Source: a virus
Taxonomy: Duplodnaviria > Caudoviricetes
IMG/VR virus record: IMGVR_UViG_3300025889_000166
Span: 1 to 52,174 of that record
Length of the DNA stretch: 52,174 bases
Reading direction: 5' to 3' (one strand)
Positions 21,252 through 27,588 of the stretch are shown here, in pieces. The translations under genes and the position numbers were made by a program. Within the stretch, counting starts at the first letter, position 1. Every line of letters begins with the position of its first letter. Below the pieces are notes generated by a model. That model was not told the origin of the DNA, ran no database searches, and saw only the letters and a program-made list of their open reading frames with translations.

Positions 21252-21637
21252 GCGCGTTCATCTGCGACCCTCGCACGATCGGAGCCGCTGCCGCGTACAT
21301 CGCCAGCACAGAGCGAGCAGACGAGCAAGAGGCGCGGCGTCTAGCGGTCAAGCTCGCCGTCGCGAACATCGTGAGCATCGACGCTCGGTACGGAGAGGGC
21401 GAGGGCGAGAAGTGGGCCGGAGACGGTTTCGCCTTCGAGTGTGCAAGTGCAGCCTCGCAGATCATCGCGGCACCTGTATCACGGGAACGTGCCCTCGGCG
21501 CTCTTCAGTGCCTTCAGTACCAGAGCTGCGAGTTCGAGGGCTACGCCGGAACGGAGCAGGGCAAGATCACCGAGGAGGCCATCGTCGGCCTCGTAGATGC
21601 GGGCGTGAAGCCCGAAGGATGGGATAGCTGGGTATGA
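21248..21637 (+). CDS. Conserved phage hypothetical protein
   Basis: MSAFIC...N..SIDARY...LQCLQYQSCE pattern; GGAGG RBS. Confidence 0.7.
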   Translation: MSAFICDPRTIGAAAAYIASTERADEQEARRLAVKLAVANIVSIDARYGEGEGEKWAGDGFAFECASAASQIIAAPVSRERALGALQCLQYQSCEFEGYAGTEQGKITEEAIVGLVDAGVKPEGWDSWV

Positions 21638-23844
21638 GCGATTATTCCGACTTCTTGGCAAGTAAGGCGATCACCGATCTGCCCACGGGCATTTCGATCT
21701 CAGGAGCACTTAACACCCACCTGTTCCCGTTCCAGCGAGATGTCGTCAGATGGTCTTTACGACGCGGCAGGTCAGCGGTGTTCGCTGATTGCGGCATGGG
21801 AAAAACGCTCATGCAGCTTGCATGGGCTGAACACGTACCCGGACCTGTTTTGATTTTGGCCCCGTTGGCTGTTGCACAGCAAACAGTACGCGAGGGTCAA
21901 AAGTTTGGGATCGACGTGGAATACGTTCGCCAGCAACCGAAAGATCACGGGAGTCGCGTCTACATCACGAACTATGAGATGCTAGATCACTTCGATGCCT
22001 CGAAGTGGCACGGTGTCGTGTTGGATGAGTCAAGCATAATCAAGCACAAAGATGGAGCGTTTCGGAGACAACTGATCGAAGATTTCTCATCTGTGCCGTT
22101 TCGACTGGCCTGCACTGCGACGCCTGCTCCAAATGACTTCACTGAGTTGGGCAATCATTCAGAGTTTCTTGGGGGACTCTCAATGACTGAGATGCTCAGC
22201 ACGTTCTTTGTGCATGACGGCGGCTCGACACAAAACTGGAGACTGAAAGGGCACGCTGTTTCTGAGTTTTGGCGATGGGTGTGTTCATGGGCTGTCATGC
22301 TCCGCAAGCCTTCGGATCTCGGATACGATGATGAAGGTTTCAATCTTCCGGGCTTGGTCTATCACGATCATGTAATCCGCACAGAGACGGCACCTGAAGG
22401 CTTCCTCTTCCCGGTGCAAGCCGAAACGTTGCAAGAGAGACTAGCGGCTCGTCGATCCACAATCGCGGAGCGGGTCGCAGAGTGCGCGGCTCACGTAAAC
22501 AACTCAACCGAGCCTTGGGTTGTCTGGTGCAACCTGAACGATGAATCGAAGGCCCTCGCAGATGCGATCCCTGACGCGGTTGAGGTGAGCGGCTCTGATT
22601 CTAACGATGTCAAAGAGGATCGCTTGCTTGGTTTTTCAGAGGGTCGTTTCCGCGTACTCGTCACGAAGCCGAAGATCGCTGGTCATGGTATGAACTGGCA
22701 GCATTGTTCCAATGTGGCTTTCGTCGGATTGTCTGATTCGTGGGAGCAGTATTACCAAGCCGTGAGGCGATGCTGGCGTTTCGGGCAAGAGCAGGATGTG
22801 GACGTTCACATTTACACTGCTGAGACGGAGGGTGCAGTTGTCGCAAACATCAAACGCAAAGAAGCAGATGCACTCACGATGGTCGAGGAAATGACGGCGC
22901 AGATGAGAGACTTGAACAGAGAGGACGTGCGAGGCATGGAAAAAGAATCCGTTGAATACGTGACAGATCACGAAAGTGGCGCAGGATGGGATCTCCACCT
23001 CGGGGACTGCGTTGATGTGGTCAAGTCTCTTGAAACAGACTCAATCGACTTTTCGGTTTTTTCGCCACCTTTCGAGAGCCTGTACACGTACACGGCCACG
23101 GATAGAGACATGGGGAATTGTCGATCCTCAGAGGAGTTTGCCGAGCACTTCAAGTTTCTTGTGGATGACTTGTTCCGCGTCATCAAGCCGGGGCGATTGG
23201 TTTCTTTTCACTGCATGAACCTTCCGACTTCTAAGGTCCGTGACGGGGTGATTGGTATTCGAGACTTCCGCGGTGAGTTGATCCGTATGTTTCAGGCTGC
23301 TGGGTTCATCTATCATTCAGAGGTCTGTATCTGGAAAGATCCAGTCACGGCGATGCAGAGGACCAAGGCGCTCGGATTGCTACACAAGCAGCTAAAGAAA
23401 GACGCCTGCATGAGTCGTCAGGGAATCGCAGACTATCTCGTCACGATGCGGAAGCCGGGAGAGAACCCGAACCCCGTCACAAACACGAACGAGACTTTCC
23501 CGGTACAGCTATGGCAGAACTACGCATCTCCTGTATGGATGGACATTAACCCCTCCGACACACTGCAATACCGGAGCGCAAGGGAGCATGACGACGAACG
23601 CCACATCTGCCCGCTTCAGCTTGAAGTGATCCGTCGTGCTATTCGGCTTTGGACGAACGAAGGGGATCTGGTATTGTCCCCATTCACGGGTATAGGCTCC
23701 GAAGGCCATGTTGCCATCGAGGAGGGGCGCAGGTTCGTAGGCGCAGAGCTGAAGGAGTCTTACTTCAAGCAGGCTTGTAAGAATCTGGACGCTGCCCAGT
23801 CCTCTCGTGTGGACTTGTTCGCTTCTGCTGGCGTAGTGGTATGA
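21634..23844 (+). CDS. SNF2-like helicase fused to N4/N6 DNA methyltransferase
   Basis: ADCGMGKT, LDESS, TATPAPND, QAVRRCWRFGQ; then FSPPF catalytic motif and VLSPFTGIGS SAM-binding motif. Confidence 0.9.
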   Translation: MSDYSDFLASKAITDLPTGISISGALNTHLFPFQRDVVRWSLRRGRSAVFADCGMGKTLMQLAWAEHVPGPVLILAPLAVAQQTVREGQKFGIDVEYVRQQPKDHGSRVYITNYEMLDHFDASKWHGVVLDESSIIKHKDGAFRRQLIEDFSSVPFRLACTATPAPNDFTELGNHSEFLGGLSMTEMLSTFFVHDGGSTQNWRLKGHAVSEFWRWVCSWAVMLRKPSDLGYDDEGFNLPGLVYHDHVIRTETAPEGFLFPVQAETLQERLAARRSTIAERVAECAAHVNNSTEPWVVWCNLNDESKALADAIPDAVEVSGSDSNDVKEDRLLGFSEGRFRVLVTKPKIAGHGMNWQHCSNVAFVGLSDSWEQYYQAVRRCWRFGQEQDVDVHIYTAETEGAVVANIKRKEADALTMVEEMTAQMRDLNREDVRGMEKESVEYVTDHESGAGWDLHLGDCVDVVKSLETDSIDFSVFSPPFESLYTYTATDRDMGNCRSSEEFAEHFKFLVDDLFRVIKPGRLVSFHCMNLPTSKVRDGVIGIRDFRGELIRMFQAAGFIYHSEVCIWKDPVTAMQRTKALGLLHKQLKKDACMSRQGIADYLVTMRKPGENPNPVTNTNETFPVQLWQNYASPVWMDINPSDTLQYRSAREHDDERHICPLQLEVIRRAIRLWTNEGDLVLSPFTGIGSEGHVAIEEGRRFVGAELKESYFKQACKNLDAAQSSRVDLFASAGVVV

Positions 23845-24062
23845 TTGGAGTCAAGGGAGCGCCACGGCACGTTGGACTAATGGATCGTACAAAGATCTGC
23901 GAAGCGTGCGGCGACATCTTCGCAAAGCCCTCGAATCAGCCGTGGGGCCGATGGCGTAAGCGTCGGTTCTGCTCACACGAGTGCTGGTGGATGACGAGGC
24001 CCAACTGGAACAGGTACGCAAACCAGAATGTGCCGCTCCAAGAGGATGAGCGGGATGCTTAG
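23841..24062 (+). CDS. Small Cys-rich protein
   Basis: CEACG..F.....RRFCSHEC. Confidence 0.6.
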   Translation: MIGVKGAPRHVGLMDRTKICEACGDIFAKPSNQPWGRWRKRRFCSHECWWMTRPNWNRYANQNVPLQEDERDA

Positions 24063-25242
24063 GGTCGGTAGCCTGTTCTCAGGGATCGGAGGATTGGAGC
24101 TTGGCCTAGAGCGGGCAGGGATGGAGGTGGTGTTCCAAGCCGAATACGACAAACAACCGCGTCGGGTGCTCGCGAGGCACTGGCCCGACGTCCACAGATA
24201 CGAGGATGTGCATGATGTCAGGATTTCACGAGAACTTGTCCGCGAGCGTAACGACGGAGTCGATAGCGAAGGCTCTCCGCGCTGGCGCCAGCGCGAACTA
24301 TCAAGGGGTGGTCCCCGGAATGGTGGAGGACCGACAGCCAATGCCGGACCAGTTGACGTTATTTGCGGAGGATTCCCGTGCCAAGATTACAGCGTTGCAG
24401 GAAAGCGCGGCGGCTTGGCTGGAGACCGTGGCGCGCTCTGGTGGGAAATGCACCGGATCGTTGCTGAGCAGCGCCCCACGTGGGTTGTCGGAGAAAATGT
24501 GTCTGGCCTCCTCTCATCGAACGGAGGAGCCGACTTCCGTACCATCATCGCCTCGCTTGTACAACTCGGGTATGGCGTCACATGGGCTACTATGGACAGC
24601 CAATACTTCGGAGTGGCGCAACGACGGAGACGCCTGTTCATTATCGGACATTCTGGAGGAGTCCCCAGACCCGAAATACTCGCTATCTCCGAGGGCTTGT
24701 TCGGGCATCCTGCGCCGAGCAGAGAAGAGGGGCCGGGTGCTGCCGAAGGCGTTGAGGCTCGCACTTACAGCAAGACAACAGCACAACCAGACTACGACAA
24801 TTGGGACGCAGCAGCAGTGAACCGAACGCTATCAACCTTCGAGAACGCGAGCGATGTGCGGGCGAGCACGATAGTCCTCGCAGGTGACGGTGCCAACGCA
24901 GAGATCACCACGGACTCGTCACCGGGGCTGGGTCCGACGCTGAAGGTGGGGTCCGGTATCGGGATTACCACGATCCCTCGCCGCCTCACCCCGAAAGAGT
25001 GCGAACGCCTACAAGGCTTCCCAGACGGTTGGACAGCACGATACGACGACGGGACAAAAGTAGCTGACGGCCCACGATATCGGATGCTCGGCAACGCGGT
25101 AACTGTGAGCGTGGCTGAATGGATCGGGAGACGAATCATGCAAGCCGAGAAACAAGACAGGGCGCGGATAGGATTCGACGCTTCGCAAGACTCGCAAGAG
25201 AACGGAGCGGACCCCGGTTCGACTCTGGGCGCGTCCATGTAG
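24055..25242 (+). CDS. C5-cytosine DNA methyltransferase (alpha polypeptide)
   Basis: SLFSGIGG, GGFPCQ, ENVSG, QRRRR, RRLTPKECERLQGFPDGWT, RYRMLGNAV; start could be 24046. Confidence 0.92.
   Translation: MLRVGSLFSGIGGLELGLERAGMEVVFQAEYDKQPRRVLARHWPDVHRYEDVHDVRISRELVRERNDGVDSEGSPRWRQRELSRGGPRNGGGPTANAGPVDVICGGFPCQDYSVAGKRGGLAGDRGALWWEMHRIVAEQRPTWVVGENVSGLLSSNGGADFRTIIASLVQLGYGVTWATMDSQYFGVAQRRRRLFIIGHSGGVPRPEILAISEGLFGHPAPSREEGPGAAEGVEARTYSKTTAQPDYDNWDAAAVNRTLSTFENASDVRASTIVLAGDGANAEITTDSSPGLGPTLKVGSGIGITTIPRRLTPKECERLQGFPDGWTARYDDGTKVADGPRYRMLGNAVTVSVAEWIGRRIMQAEKQDRARIGFDASQDSQENGADPGSTLGASM
24341..24820 (+). CDS. Nested out-of-frame MTase beta polypeptide (M.EcoHK31I-beta-like)
   Basis: Own GGAGGA RBS; SLSDILE...KYSLSPRACSGILRRAEKRGRVLP..L..AL motif in the +1 frame inside the MTase gene. 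Confidence 0.7.
   Translation: MPDQLTLFAEDSRAKITALQESAAAWLETVARSGGKCTGSLLSSAPRGLSEKMCLASSHRTEEPTSVPSSPRLYNSGMASHGLLWTANTSEWRNDGDACSLSDILEESPDPKYSLSPRACSGILRRAEKRGRVLPKALRLALTARQQHNQTTTIGTQQQ
25160..25237 (+). ncRNA. Minimal tmRNA: tRNA-like domain only, no mRNA-like domain
   Basis: Acceptor GGGCGCG/CGCGTCC-A with G3.U70 and A73; stemless D-loop GATAGGATTCGA; helix 2a CGCTTCG/CGGAGCG; GAC linker; T-arm CCCGG-TTCGACT-CTGGG; interior only CTC-GCAA-GAG. Confidence 0.85.
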
Positions 25243-25339
25243 AACAGGCTCGGGAAGCGCGTCTGATATGTCATGCAGAGCTTAACCGTGGGACGCGCAC
25301 GGCACGGGGGTGGTTCCTCGGTAGCCATAAGACAGCGCA

Positions 25340-25372
25340 GCCCTCGTCAGCTTCGGCGGGCGGGGGCTTCGC
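25340..25372 (+). terminator. Putative terminator hairpin
   Basis: GCCCTCGTCAGC-TTCG-GCGGGCGGGGGC, weak U-tract; before terminase genes. Confidence 0.5.
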
Positions 25373-25439
25373 ACTTCACAGAACCCACTCGCGCGTCCTA
25401 CCTTTGAGACTCAACCCAACCCCAACACGGAACGGGTGG

Positions 25440-26111
25440 ATGAGTCCTAAGAAGCACAAGCTCGACCACGAGAACGATCTCTGGCTCCAGCAGCCGGGAG
25501 AGAGCCCGCAAGCCTACGAGGCGTTCTGCACGTTTCGCGACCTGCCGCGTCAGAGGCGCACGCAGAATCTCGTTGCCTTGAGGTTGGGAAAGAGCGGGAC
25601 GATCATAAACCGATGGGCGCAACGCTGGTCATGGCACGATCGCGTCCTGCCGTGGGACCGCGAGGACGACCGCGTGGTCCTCGAAGAGCATTGGGACCGC
25701 CTGCGCGAAATGTCTGCGCGACAGTCTGACGAGGCGATGACGATGGCCTCGACTTTGATGGAGCCAGCGAGAGCGATCCAGAAGCTGATGCTCGAACAGC
25801 CTGACGCTTTCTATGATTATTTTATGGCCGACGATGGCGAGGGCGGCAGGGTGCTCGACTTCGACCGACTCGACCGCGTGCTTCACATGGTCTACACGTC
25901 GGCGCGGTATCTGCCGATGATCGCTGAGATGGAGCACAGGGCGCGAGGTATCCGTGGCGAGGTGGTCGAGCAGGAGTTCGGGAGCCAGCACGCCTCGCCG
26001 GTCGTCGGTCGCATCGAAGTCGGGCGCGACACCGCTGCCGCTTCTGAGTTATTCGCCAAGCTGGTCGGGCGCACCGCTCCGCAGATCGCTGTCAGTGATC
26101 GCGCTGGCTGA
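25440..26111 (+). CDS. terS: Terminase small subunit
   Basis: W.QQPGES..AYEAF..FRDL...RW..RWSW.DR pattern; immediately upstream of TerL. Confidence 0.75.
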   Translation: MSPKKHKLDHENDLWLQQPGESPQAYEAFCTFRDLPRQRRTQNLVALRLGKSGTIINRWAQRWSWHDRVLPWDREDDRVVLEEHWDRLREMSARQSDEAMTMASTLMEPARAIQKLMLEQPDAFYDYFMADDGEGGRVLDFDRLDRVLHMVYTSARYLPMIAEMEHRARGIRGEVVEQEFGSQHASPVVGRIEVGRDTAAASELFAKLVGRTAPQIAVSDRAG

Positions 26112-27588
26112 CATTGATGACGCGGTGCTCGCTCGCAGCTACCCTGCGGGCTTCGCCCGTTATGCGAGCTTCGGGAAATGGGAGATCGCGGATCACCTGC
26201 TGCTGATTCAAGCCTACCTGTTAGAGCTTGTTTACGGAGACATCGACAACCTCATCATCTCCATGCCGCCACGGCACGGGAAGTCGATGTTCGTGAGCAC
26301 GTATTTCCCATGCTGGTATCTGGGCACGCACCCAAATCACAACGTCATCCTCGCGTCATACGAGGCAGGGCTCGCGTCGATGTTCGGGGGACGTGTCCGC
26401 GATCTGATGGCAGAGTTCGGCGCGAGTCTATGGGGCCTGCGGGTCCGACCTGACAAGCGAGCCGCGAGCGATTGGGAGCTAGTCGGCAAAGGCGCGGACG
26501 GCACGCCGGTCGTCGGCGGCATGAGATCAGCAGGCGTCGGGTCGGGTGTTACAGGACGAGGCGCGAACCTCGTCATCATCGACGACCCCGTGAAAGACGC
26601 GGAGCAGGCGCAGAGCGAGAGGTATCGGCAGCGGGTCTGGGACTGGTATCTCGCCACGCTGTTCACACGTCGCGAACCCGGCTGCAAGCAGTTGTGTGTG
26701 ATGACTCGCTGGCATGAGGACGATCTGGCTGGACGGCTCAAGGATCGGGCCGAGGAGCAGGCGGGCATCCAGTGGCACGAACTCTCTCTTCCCGCAATCG
26801 CTGAGGAGAAAGACGAGGGCGACGAACTCGGGCGCTCGCTCAACGATGTTCTATGGCCGGAACGCTGGCCGATCGACCAGTTGGAAACGGTACGCGGTAC
26901 CATGTCGGCCTACTGGTTCGGGGCGCTGTATCAGCAGCGACCGGCACCAGCCGAGGGTAACATCTTCCGGCGCGACTGGTGGAGGTTCTGGGTGCCGCCA
27001 GAGCTAGAGGGCAAGCTGCCGCCTGTGCGCCTGTCGGGTACAGACAAAGCCGCTGAGGTCATTGTGCGTCCCGAGATGCAGCGCGTGGCGCAGTCGTGGG
27101 ATCTGACCTTCAAGAAGGGCGAGGACACCGCGTTCGTCGTCGGGCAGACGTGGGGGCGAGCAGGGCCTGACGCTTACCTGCTCGACGAGGACCGCGCTCG
27201 TCGTAGCTTCCCCGAGACTGTCGATGCCGTGCGCTCGTTCGCGCAGCGATGGGATGAGGTGTCGGCTATCTGGATCGAAGACGCGGCAAACGCGCAGGCA
27301 ACGATGGCGGTCTTGGCTGGCGAGGTGCCGGGGATGATCCCGGTGCGTGTTGAGGGCAGCAAGGAGGATCGTGCTCTGGCGATCAGCGCGTACCCGGAGG
27401 CGGGCAACGTCGTCCTGCCACATCCTGCGGTCGCTCCGTGGGTGGTCGATTATATTGAGGAACTCGCTAGTTTCCCTAATGGCCGATACGCAGACCGTGT
27501 GGATTGCACGAGTCAGGCGCTCCGCAGAATATTTACGACGGAGGAGAAGAAGCGCCTCGTCTGGGGGAAGCGACATCATCGGAGGTAG
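26095..27588 (+). CDS. terL: Terminase large subunit
   Basis: SMPPRHGKS, TGRGANLVIIDDPVK, MTRWHEDDLAG, ALYQQRP, SWDLTFK, FPNGRYADRVD; start approximate. Confidence 0.95.
   Translation: MIALADIDDAVLARSYPAGFARYASFGKWEIADHLLLIQAYLLELVYGDIDNLIISMPPRHGKSMFVSTYFPCWYLGTHPNHNVILASYEAGLASMFGGRVRDLMAEFGASLWGLRVRPDKRAASDWELVGKGADGTPVVGGMRSAGVGSGVTGRGANLVIIDDPVKDAEQAQSERYRQRVWDWYLATLFTRREPGCKQLCVMTRWHEDDLAGRLKDRAEEQAGIQWHELSLPAIAEEKDEGDELGRSLNDVLWPERWPIDQLETVRGTMSAYWFGALYQQRPAPAEGNIFRRDWWRFWVPPELEGKLPPVRLSGTDKAAEVIVRPEMQRVAQSWDLTFKKGEDTAFVVGQTWGRAGPDAYLLDEDRARRSFPETVDAVRSFAQRWDEVSAIWIEDAANAQATMAVLAGEVPGMIPVRVEGSKEDRALAISAYPEAGNVVLPHPAVAPWVVDYIEELASFPNGRYADRVDCTSQALRRIFTTEEKKRLVWGKRHHRR

Follow-up and report, generated by a model that had tools for sequence, protein, structure and literature searches.

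TLD-Only tmRNAs of Phages and Organelles

Bacteria rescue stalled ribosomes mainly by trans-translation. The transfer-messenger RNA (tmRNA) of this pathway is processed by RNase P and at its 3′ end, receives CCA, and is alanylated by alanyl-tRNA synthetase (AlaRS) via the G3.U70 pair; SmpB binds its elbow, EF-Tu delivers it, and the complex enters the empty A site of non-stop ribosomes. The element considered here, 78 nucleotides (nt) long, corresponds to the tRNA-like domain (TLD) of such an RNA without any message part, and lies in a 52,174-nt stretch of DNA of a freshwater phage (Caudoviricetes; IMG/VR record IMGVR_UViG_3300025889_000166); this whole stretch is referred to below as the window.

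The closest described system is also phage-borne: “Mycobacterium phage DS6A (TLD only)” is listed in PMC4131195, and the same form is described in PMC11915505 (these and the other papers are cited here from excerpts of their text). A preliminary description of the window had mentioned TLD-only forms from mobile elements, and DS6A is indeed such a case. Both sources state, with reference to Mao et al. 2009, that endogenous tmRNA in E. coli is strongly inhibited by a TLD molecule like that of DS6A, and SmpB titration, tag-less rescue, or jamming are functions already proposed in the excerpted literature for TLD-only forms. A TLD-only tmRNA of the DS6A type is an already known kind, in print since 2009, and the role of a tmRNA without a message is a question raised since the jakobid mitochondrial and DS6A cases.

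tmRNAs without a coding sequence (CDS) are also described, in the excerpts of PMC11915505, from mitochondria and, with a length of about 65 bp, from the plastids of Mallomonadaceae. The organellar forms (jakobid and oomycete mitochondria, RF02544; plastids) resemble the window element in being reduced to the TLD and in lacking a tag frame, and they are thought to work with SmpB without full trans-translation, much as is proposed below for the phage element; they differ from it in that the mitochondrial genes are usually permuted, and in being cellular, co-occurring with their own SmpB, not viral. In the 2025 tmRNA database, nine sequences are classed as “Standard, no CDS”, and phages account for 79 tmRNAs in all (PMC11915505, Tables 2 and 3, as excerpted). 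The literature searched contained no description of TLD-only tmRNAs as a widespread phage family, most subscription journals lying outside that search.

A Complete tRNA-Like Domain in Standard Order

The plus strand at positions 25160–25237 reads GGGCGCG-GATAGGATTCGA-CGCTTCG-CAAGA-CTC-GCAA-GAG-AA-CGGAGCG-GAC-CCCGG-TTCGACT-CTGGG-CGCGTCC-A. It is a complete tmRNA TLD in non-permuted order, closed by a short connector and devoid of a tag frame. The TLD hallmarks that had drawn attention to the locus, their normal order, and the absence of an encoded CCA are all borne out, at the coordinates given for them, by the sequence, the fold, and the alignment to the Rfam tmRNA model, RF00023. The D-loop has no D-stem and carries GGAUUCGA (consensus alignment and fold). 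The bases following the element are TG and then TAG at 25240–25242; the tail is ATGT, hence no CCA is encoded. A 3-bp GCAA-capped hairpin occupies the place of the tmRNA tag template and pseudoknots, as the preliminary description had it: in the RF00023 alignment model positions 1–26 and 337–371 are aligned end to end, while the 310 internal model positions are replaced by 17 nt. The minimum free energy (MFE) fold reproduces exactly the TLD structure; its energy is unremarkable (z = −0.97), so that the support for the element is comparative, not thermodynamic.

The TLD-only ssrA of DS6A (tmRNA Website ID 11587) was located at JN698994 28478–28560. Both elements have the 7-bp acceptor stem with G3.U70, A73, the stemless D-loop, the T-arm, and helix 2 closed by a short hairpin; both are about 80 nt long and phage-borne, do not encode CCA, and obtain the same RF00023 score (43.2 bits for DS6A, 42.8 bits for the window element). 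The traits of the DS6A-type form, namely standard order, a short connector, no tag frame, and a length of about 65–95 nt, are all found in the window element. The differences concern the D-loop and linker (GGUGGUCGA and GCAC in DS6A, GGAUUCGA and GGAC in the window), the lack of any blastn similarity between the two elements, whose phages are unrelated, and their location, the DS6A copy being intergenic, between gp33 and the Pol III gene, whereas the window copy lies under the tail of a DNA methyltransferase (MTase) open reading frame (ORF) before the packaging genes. With the standard bacterial tmRNA (RF00023) the window element shares the whole tRNA-like domain; it lacks the resume codon, the tag ORF, and the pseudoknots PK1–PK4, so that no trans-translation tag is possible and, the score also lying under the Rfam cut-off, it is not a full member of that family. 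With tRNA-Ala it shares G3.U70, A73, the 7-bp acceptor stem, and the T-arm; it differs in having neither an anticodon arm nor a D-stem, and in the window neither a match to the tRNA model RF00005 nor an ARAGORN call was obtained.

Detection by Standard Models

Checking the locus with Rfam tmRNA models and ARAGORN, as had been suggested, gave a divided answer. RF00023 finds the element: in a whole-record search with loose filters it matches 25160–25240 with 42.8 bits (E 2e-17), and on a 101-nt stretch it matches 25160–25237 with 38.0 bits (E 1.8e-14, model positions 1–371). The gathering cut-off of RF00023 is 47 bits; DS6A, with 43.2 bits, likewise lies under it. At gathering thresholds Rfam returns no match for the element, and the tmRNA family is absent from the matches of a permissive E-value Rfam scan of 401 nt. 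ARAGORN reports no gene and no tag in the window, and when run on 20 related loci it found none of their 19 TLD-only elements. No match to the mitochondrial model RF02544 was obtained in the window, and control genomes gave none either. Two candidates were set aside: a weak tmRNA_permuted match (9.7 and 17 bits) consists of the T-arm and a chance complement only, and a 343-nt “tmRNA” called by ARAGORN in a related contig (L002 2976–3318, with a 30-aa tag ending in AA) is probably an artefact, since its 3′ end is the TLD-only element and its “tag” is read through the 5′ half of that element.

A Covarying Family of Phage RNAs

The relatives of the element were collected in two pattern scans of IMG/VR. 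The first, in which the two TLD halves were forced to lie 15–45 nt apart, gave 26 contigs, 25 of them with a perfect acceptor stem (7/7) and T-arm (5/5). As a chance control the same pattern was applied to 596 Gb of bacterial and archaeal genome contigs, with at least 120 matches; two of the 120 listed (L037 and L098) pass this stem test, and chance is excluded by the comparison of 25/26 with 2/120. The second scan, with a looser pattern, gave at least 119 stretches, and 110 of the 116 new viral loci listed from it pass the stem test. Together with the window, the at least 135 further viral contigs (L002–L027 and L151–L266) form a family set of at least 136 loci and at least 108 unique sequences; the counts out of 108 and 136 below are of the matches listed from these two narrow pattern scans. 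The element thus belongs to a covarying RNA family found almost only on viral contigs. Covarying TLD-only homologues in phage genomes, proposed in the preliminary description as a test, do exist, and their covariation is strong.

In a model-guided alignment of 21 sequences, fitted to the structure and containing sequences related to each other, 97% of the cells are paired, as against 36–54% with slid partners. Changes on both sides occur in 13 of the 19 pairs (acceptor 3/7, helix 2 6/7, T-arm 4/5), and double changes amount to 121 cells compared with 39.7 in shuffles, none of 500 shuffles reaching 121. The search patterns fixed parts of the D-loop, GGAC, and the T-loop and left the acceptor stem free, the acceptor filter demanding only any standard pair. 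Under that filter, G1-C72, G2-C71, G3.U70, and A73 are invariant in 108/108 unique sequences, and acceptor pairs 4 to 6 vary, with four to six pair types each. The median length in the family set is 79 nt. The middle part folds as one hairpin in 107/108 sequences; in 66/108 its stem has two tiers and an internal loop that is A-rich on the 5′ side. This modal shape is also that of the window element. CCA is encoded in 31 of the 108, hence its lack in the window element is ordinary.

Such data make it very improbable that the element is a non-functional remnant, whether derived by decay from a full-length phage tmRNA gene or left behind by integration as an attP-type piece of a host ssrA. It is true that tmRNA genes are common integration sites (PMC11915505, in excerpt) and that the Rfam score is under the cut-off. 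An attP, however, requires the 3′ part only, whereas here both halves are present and covarying; variants in relatives keep or improve the pairing; the tight clustering of sizes is not expected from random deletions; and searches of the window, a contig only about 75% complete, turned up neither an integrase nor a resolvase.

Similar elements occur in cultured phages. Streptomyces phage LuckySocke carries a TLD-only element without annotation (OR725497.1 17977–18054; L267 1501–1578), located inside a tRNA array between tRNA-Val and tRNA-Ser, and full-length blastn matches to it are also present in phages GiJojo and pSt2308. A covariance model built here, R1, gives 76.9 bits to the window element and 66.2 bits to DS6A, both of them members of its seed; outside the seed, it gives 77.5 bits to L037, 77.8 bits to L098, and 65.4 bits to LuckySocke. 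Searches of a phage collection by megablast and blastn, with the region and with the element as queries, gave nothing useful, and family member L158 likewise had no match. Weaker variants (26–28 bits) were noted in Microbacterium phage Dismas, adjoining tRNA-Gln, and in Salinibacter phage M31CR41-2. The two elements on genome contigs belong to an Acidimicrobiaceae metagenome-assembled genome (MAG; L098 220–300, minus strand) and a Butyrivibrio MAG (L037 1497–1573, plus strand).

Overlap with the Methyltransferase Gene

In the window the RNA gene lies under the 3′ end of a C5 cytosine DNA MTase ORF, the last 27 codons of which, RARIGFDASQDSQENGADPGSTLGASM, are read across it. The preliminary description spoke of an RNA hidden in this gene; in a functional sense this does not hold. 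The PF00145 domain match ends at residue 371 of 404, that is, at nt 25140, upstream of the element. In L004, the closest relative, whose element differs at three positions (one in the internal loop, one in the T-loop, and a change of G57.U67 to G-C), the C5 MTase stops just after ...MQAEKQD, its end reading ...MQAEKQDMYAIKP, a separate N6/N4 MTase gene stands between it and the element, and the RNA is intergenic, 26 nt past the stop of that N6/N4 MTase gene. Upstream, the window and L004 cease to be homologous; homology sets in again about 3 nt ahead of the 5′ end of the RNA, from where it spans the RNA and then a trailer of about 90 nt up to the packaging genes. Since homology restarts just 5′ of the RNA, the RNA travels with the downstream block, and the 27-codon tail of the window MTase is a read-through made by a module junction. 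Judged from these layouts the overlap is incidental: real in the window, but not a conserved feature. The methylase set varies between these close relatives, the stand-alone N6/N4 methylase being extra in L004.

The direct junction of MTase and RNA is retained in a marine-plankton contig (run X16). Between positions 24975 and 25328, 23 differences between this contig and the window are listed, 22 of them in the MTase part and a single one in the RNA, where it turns a G.U pair into G-C. This change, 25226 T>C, is found in L004 and in runs X12 and X16. The distribution of the listed differences, with one that improves pairing in the RNA against 22 in the MTase, suggests purifying selection on the RNA and speaks for a functional gene.

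Genomic Context of the Window and of the Family

The window contig, a 52-kb IMG/VR record, recurs almost in full in eight freshwater-metagenome runs, possibly including those it came from, and parts of it are present in estuary, salt-marsh, and marine runs. Between 19990 and 28920 every annotated gene is on the plus strand, in the order of a SNF2-helicase/N6-MTase fusion, a small ORF, the C5 MTase, and the RNA, followed after 203 nt by an unannotated ORF, the large terminase (TerL), and the portal gene. No plus-strand promoter-like or terminator-like site was found in 24600–25700; this result and the 26-nt gap in L004 are counted for co-transcription and processing of the RNA. The one contig obtained from metatranscriptome run X24 covers 24886–25036, outside the element, and is hence silent on its expression. 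No tRNA or SmpB gene was found in the window.

In the family as a whole, 25 of the 136 loci have tRNA genes no more than 1 kb from the element, and 24 of these 25 have them on the strand of the element. In two loci the element sits within a same-strand array of 20 tRNAs, between tRNA-Thr and tRNA-Gln in L022 (8619–8698, minus strand) and between tRNA-Glu and tRNA-Val in L027 (806–884, plus strand). Tallied over the loci, the recurrent same-strand neighbours are late genes: upstream the prohead protease (20 loci), the portal protein (19), and TerL (15), and downstream the capsid protein (14). In 20 loci (e.g., L214 and L190) the element stands between the prohead protease and major capsid genes on the same strand, inside the head-morphogenesis operon. 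The neighbouring tRNAs and the arrays are counted for a tRNA-like processing of the element.

From its position the element could be read as tRNA-like punctuation, recruiting RNase P and 3′ nucleases to cut the transcript between DNA-modification and packaging genes, with the released RNA remaining idle. Elements at module borders or inside same-strand late operons would suit such a role, as would the window copy itself, 203 nt before the packaging genes in a region with no promoter or terminator found. It is nevertheless quite improbable, as any tRNA-like fold serves RNase P, and the retention of the tmRNA-specific GGAUUCGA D-loop, GAC, and G3.U70 across 108 sequences would be left unexplained, as would the place of the element among ordinary tRNAs in arrays.

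Proposed Mode of Action

The reading preferred here, with a probability of roughly 0.55, is that the element works as a phage gene and encodes a TLD-only tmRNA which is processed by the host, charged with alanine, bound by SmpB, and competes with the host tmRNA, so that tagging is blocked or bypassed. The element would have no promoter of its own and would share a transcript with the DNA-modification genes upstream; the RNA would be excised, as a tRNA is, by RNase P and 3′ trimming enzymes of the host, whose CCA-adding enzyme would supply CCA. Host AlaRS would then alanylate it through G3.U70 and A73, host SmpB would bind its elbow, and EF-Tu would bring the complex to ribosomes stalled at mRNA ends, in competition with the host tmRNA. 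Because there is no resume codon, the nascent chain could gain alanine but no degradation tag, and rescue would be uncoupled from proteolysis, or jammed; in late infection, tagging by trans-translation would thereby be blocked or circumvented. A search for SmpB (PF01668) gave no hit in any of 50 viral records, 48 of them with a filtered element, nor in any of 16 records at least 90% complete, so that host SmpB would be needed.

The same absence of SmpB would suit a pure sponge, an RNA that only sequesters host SmpB, and perhaps RNase R, is never on the ribosome, and for which charging is irrelevant. What makes a pure sponge rather unlikely is that the alanine identity set is invariant in 108/108 sequences while neighbouring acceptor pairs vary, and that the full 7-bp acceptor stem and 5-bp T-arm, the EF-Tu-binding parts, are always kept, although needless for a sponge bound at the elbow by SmpB. 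The invariant identity set argues that the RNAs of the family are charged, and these charging determinants favour an action on the ribosome over mere sequestration. A decoy directed against host RNA-directed defence or nucleases, such as RNase R or defence proteins with SmpB-like domains, is conceivable by analogy only: phage AcrIIIA1 employs RNase R-binding t(m)RNA fragments (PMC11662646, in excerpt), and SmpB-like domains occur in CoCoNuT defence systems (PMC11090510, in excerpt). The annotated neighbour clusters, 10 of the top ones, include no gene for defence or anti-defence linked to the element, and a decoy is decidedly unlikely.

Several observations weigh against a functional, alanine-charged tmRNA of the kind preferred here. 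Both RF00023 scores of the window element are below the 47-bit cut-off, and its fold energy is no better than that of shuffled sequences. The invariance of the D-loop, GGAC, and T-loop motifs is partly imposed by the search patterns. Seven further differences of the X16 contig lie outside the listed 23 and could fall in the RNA. The result cited for E. coli in the excerpts of PMC4131195 and PMC11915505 means that a sponge effect alone can inhibit tmRNA. Finally, the nearest TerL proteins of cultured phages are about 40% identical and spread over many host genera, and a host is not assignable thereby.

For this phage only, an RNase P cut at 25159/25160 would strip the stop codon from the MTase mRNA while sparing the whole catalytic domain. 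The feedback link suggested in the preliminary description is possible to that extent; as a conserved design it is contradicted by L004, in which the RNA is intergenic. The widest claim, of a large phage-specific class of alanine-charged, SmpB-dependent RNAs that take over rescue without the degradation tag, together with a self-regulatory loop of the MTase, is doubtful. If it were true, stalled ribosomes would be freed, or one or several alanines added, without tagging, and phage proteins made from processed or cleaved mRNAs would be protected; excision would make a non-stop MTase mRNA, the fate of whose product would be set by that same RNA, in a self-contained regulatory loop. At least 135 further viral contigs, set against nine “Standard, no CDS” database entries, show TLD-only tmRNAs to be common but unannotated in phages. 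What deserves attention is the breadth of this family, combined with its invariant alanine identity elements. Charged RNAs would be a testable departure from the view of an SmpB sponge.

Features of the Region and Its Trailer

The features of the RNA gene and its surroundings are collected in Table 1. Directly upstream of the C5 MTase lies a gene for a 736-aa fusion of a SNF2/DEAD-type helicase with an N6/N4 DNA methylase (21634–23844, plus strand).

Table 1. Coordinates of the RNA element, its parts, and the adjoining features in the window.
Feature	Position	Strand	Description	Basis
C5 cytosine DNA methyltransferase ORF	24028..25242	+	404 aa; stop TAG 25240–25242	PF00145, E 1e-61
TLD-only (tag-less) tmRNA gene	25160..25237	+	78 nt; CCA not encoded	RF00023, 42.8 and 38.0 bits; MFE fold
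Acceptor stem, 5′ strand	25160..25166	+	GGGCGCG (G1, G2, G3)	7/7 pairs with 25230–25236, G3.U70 included
Stemless D-loop	25167..25178	+	12 nt; GAUAGGAUUCGA	aligned to GGaUUCGA of the Rfam tmRNA consensus
Helix 2, internal loop, and hairpin	25179..25209	+	7 bp, CGCUUCG/CGGAGCG; internal loop CAAGA/AA; hairpin CUC-GCAA-GAG	MFE fold
Linker preceding the T-arm	25210..25212	+	GAC	matches GGAC of the Rfam consensus
T-arm	25213..25229	+	CCCGG UUCGACU CUGGG; G57.U67 wobble	5/5 pairs
Acceptor stem, 3′ strand, and discriminator	25230..25237	+	CGCGUCC; A73	pairing with the 5′ strand
Trailer conserved with the RNA in L004	25238..25328	+		alignment
ORF before TerL	25440..26111	+	223 aa; small terminase by position only; homologue in L004	no Pfam match
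Large terminase (TerL)	25954..27588	+		PF03237, PF17289

Folding of the trailer (25238–25345) gives nothing significant (z = 0.06). Two copies of the heptamer GCGCGTC are present, one at 25229, where it overlaps the 3′ strand of the acceptor stem, and one at 25258, and its complement GACGCGC occurs at 25293; the heptamers at 25258 and 25293 could pair in a 7-bp stem with a 27-nt loop, within the part of the trailer conserved in L004 upstream of the packaging genes. The trailer ends at an insertion hot spot, 25328/25329, where the X16 contig has 525 extra letters and L004 diverges over the next 40 nt or so.

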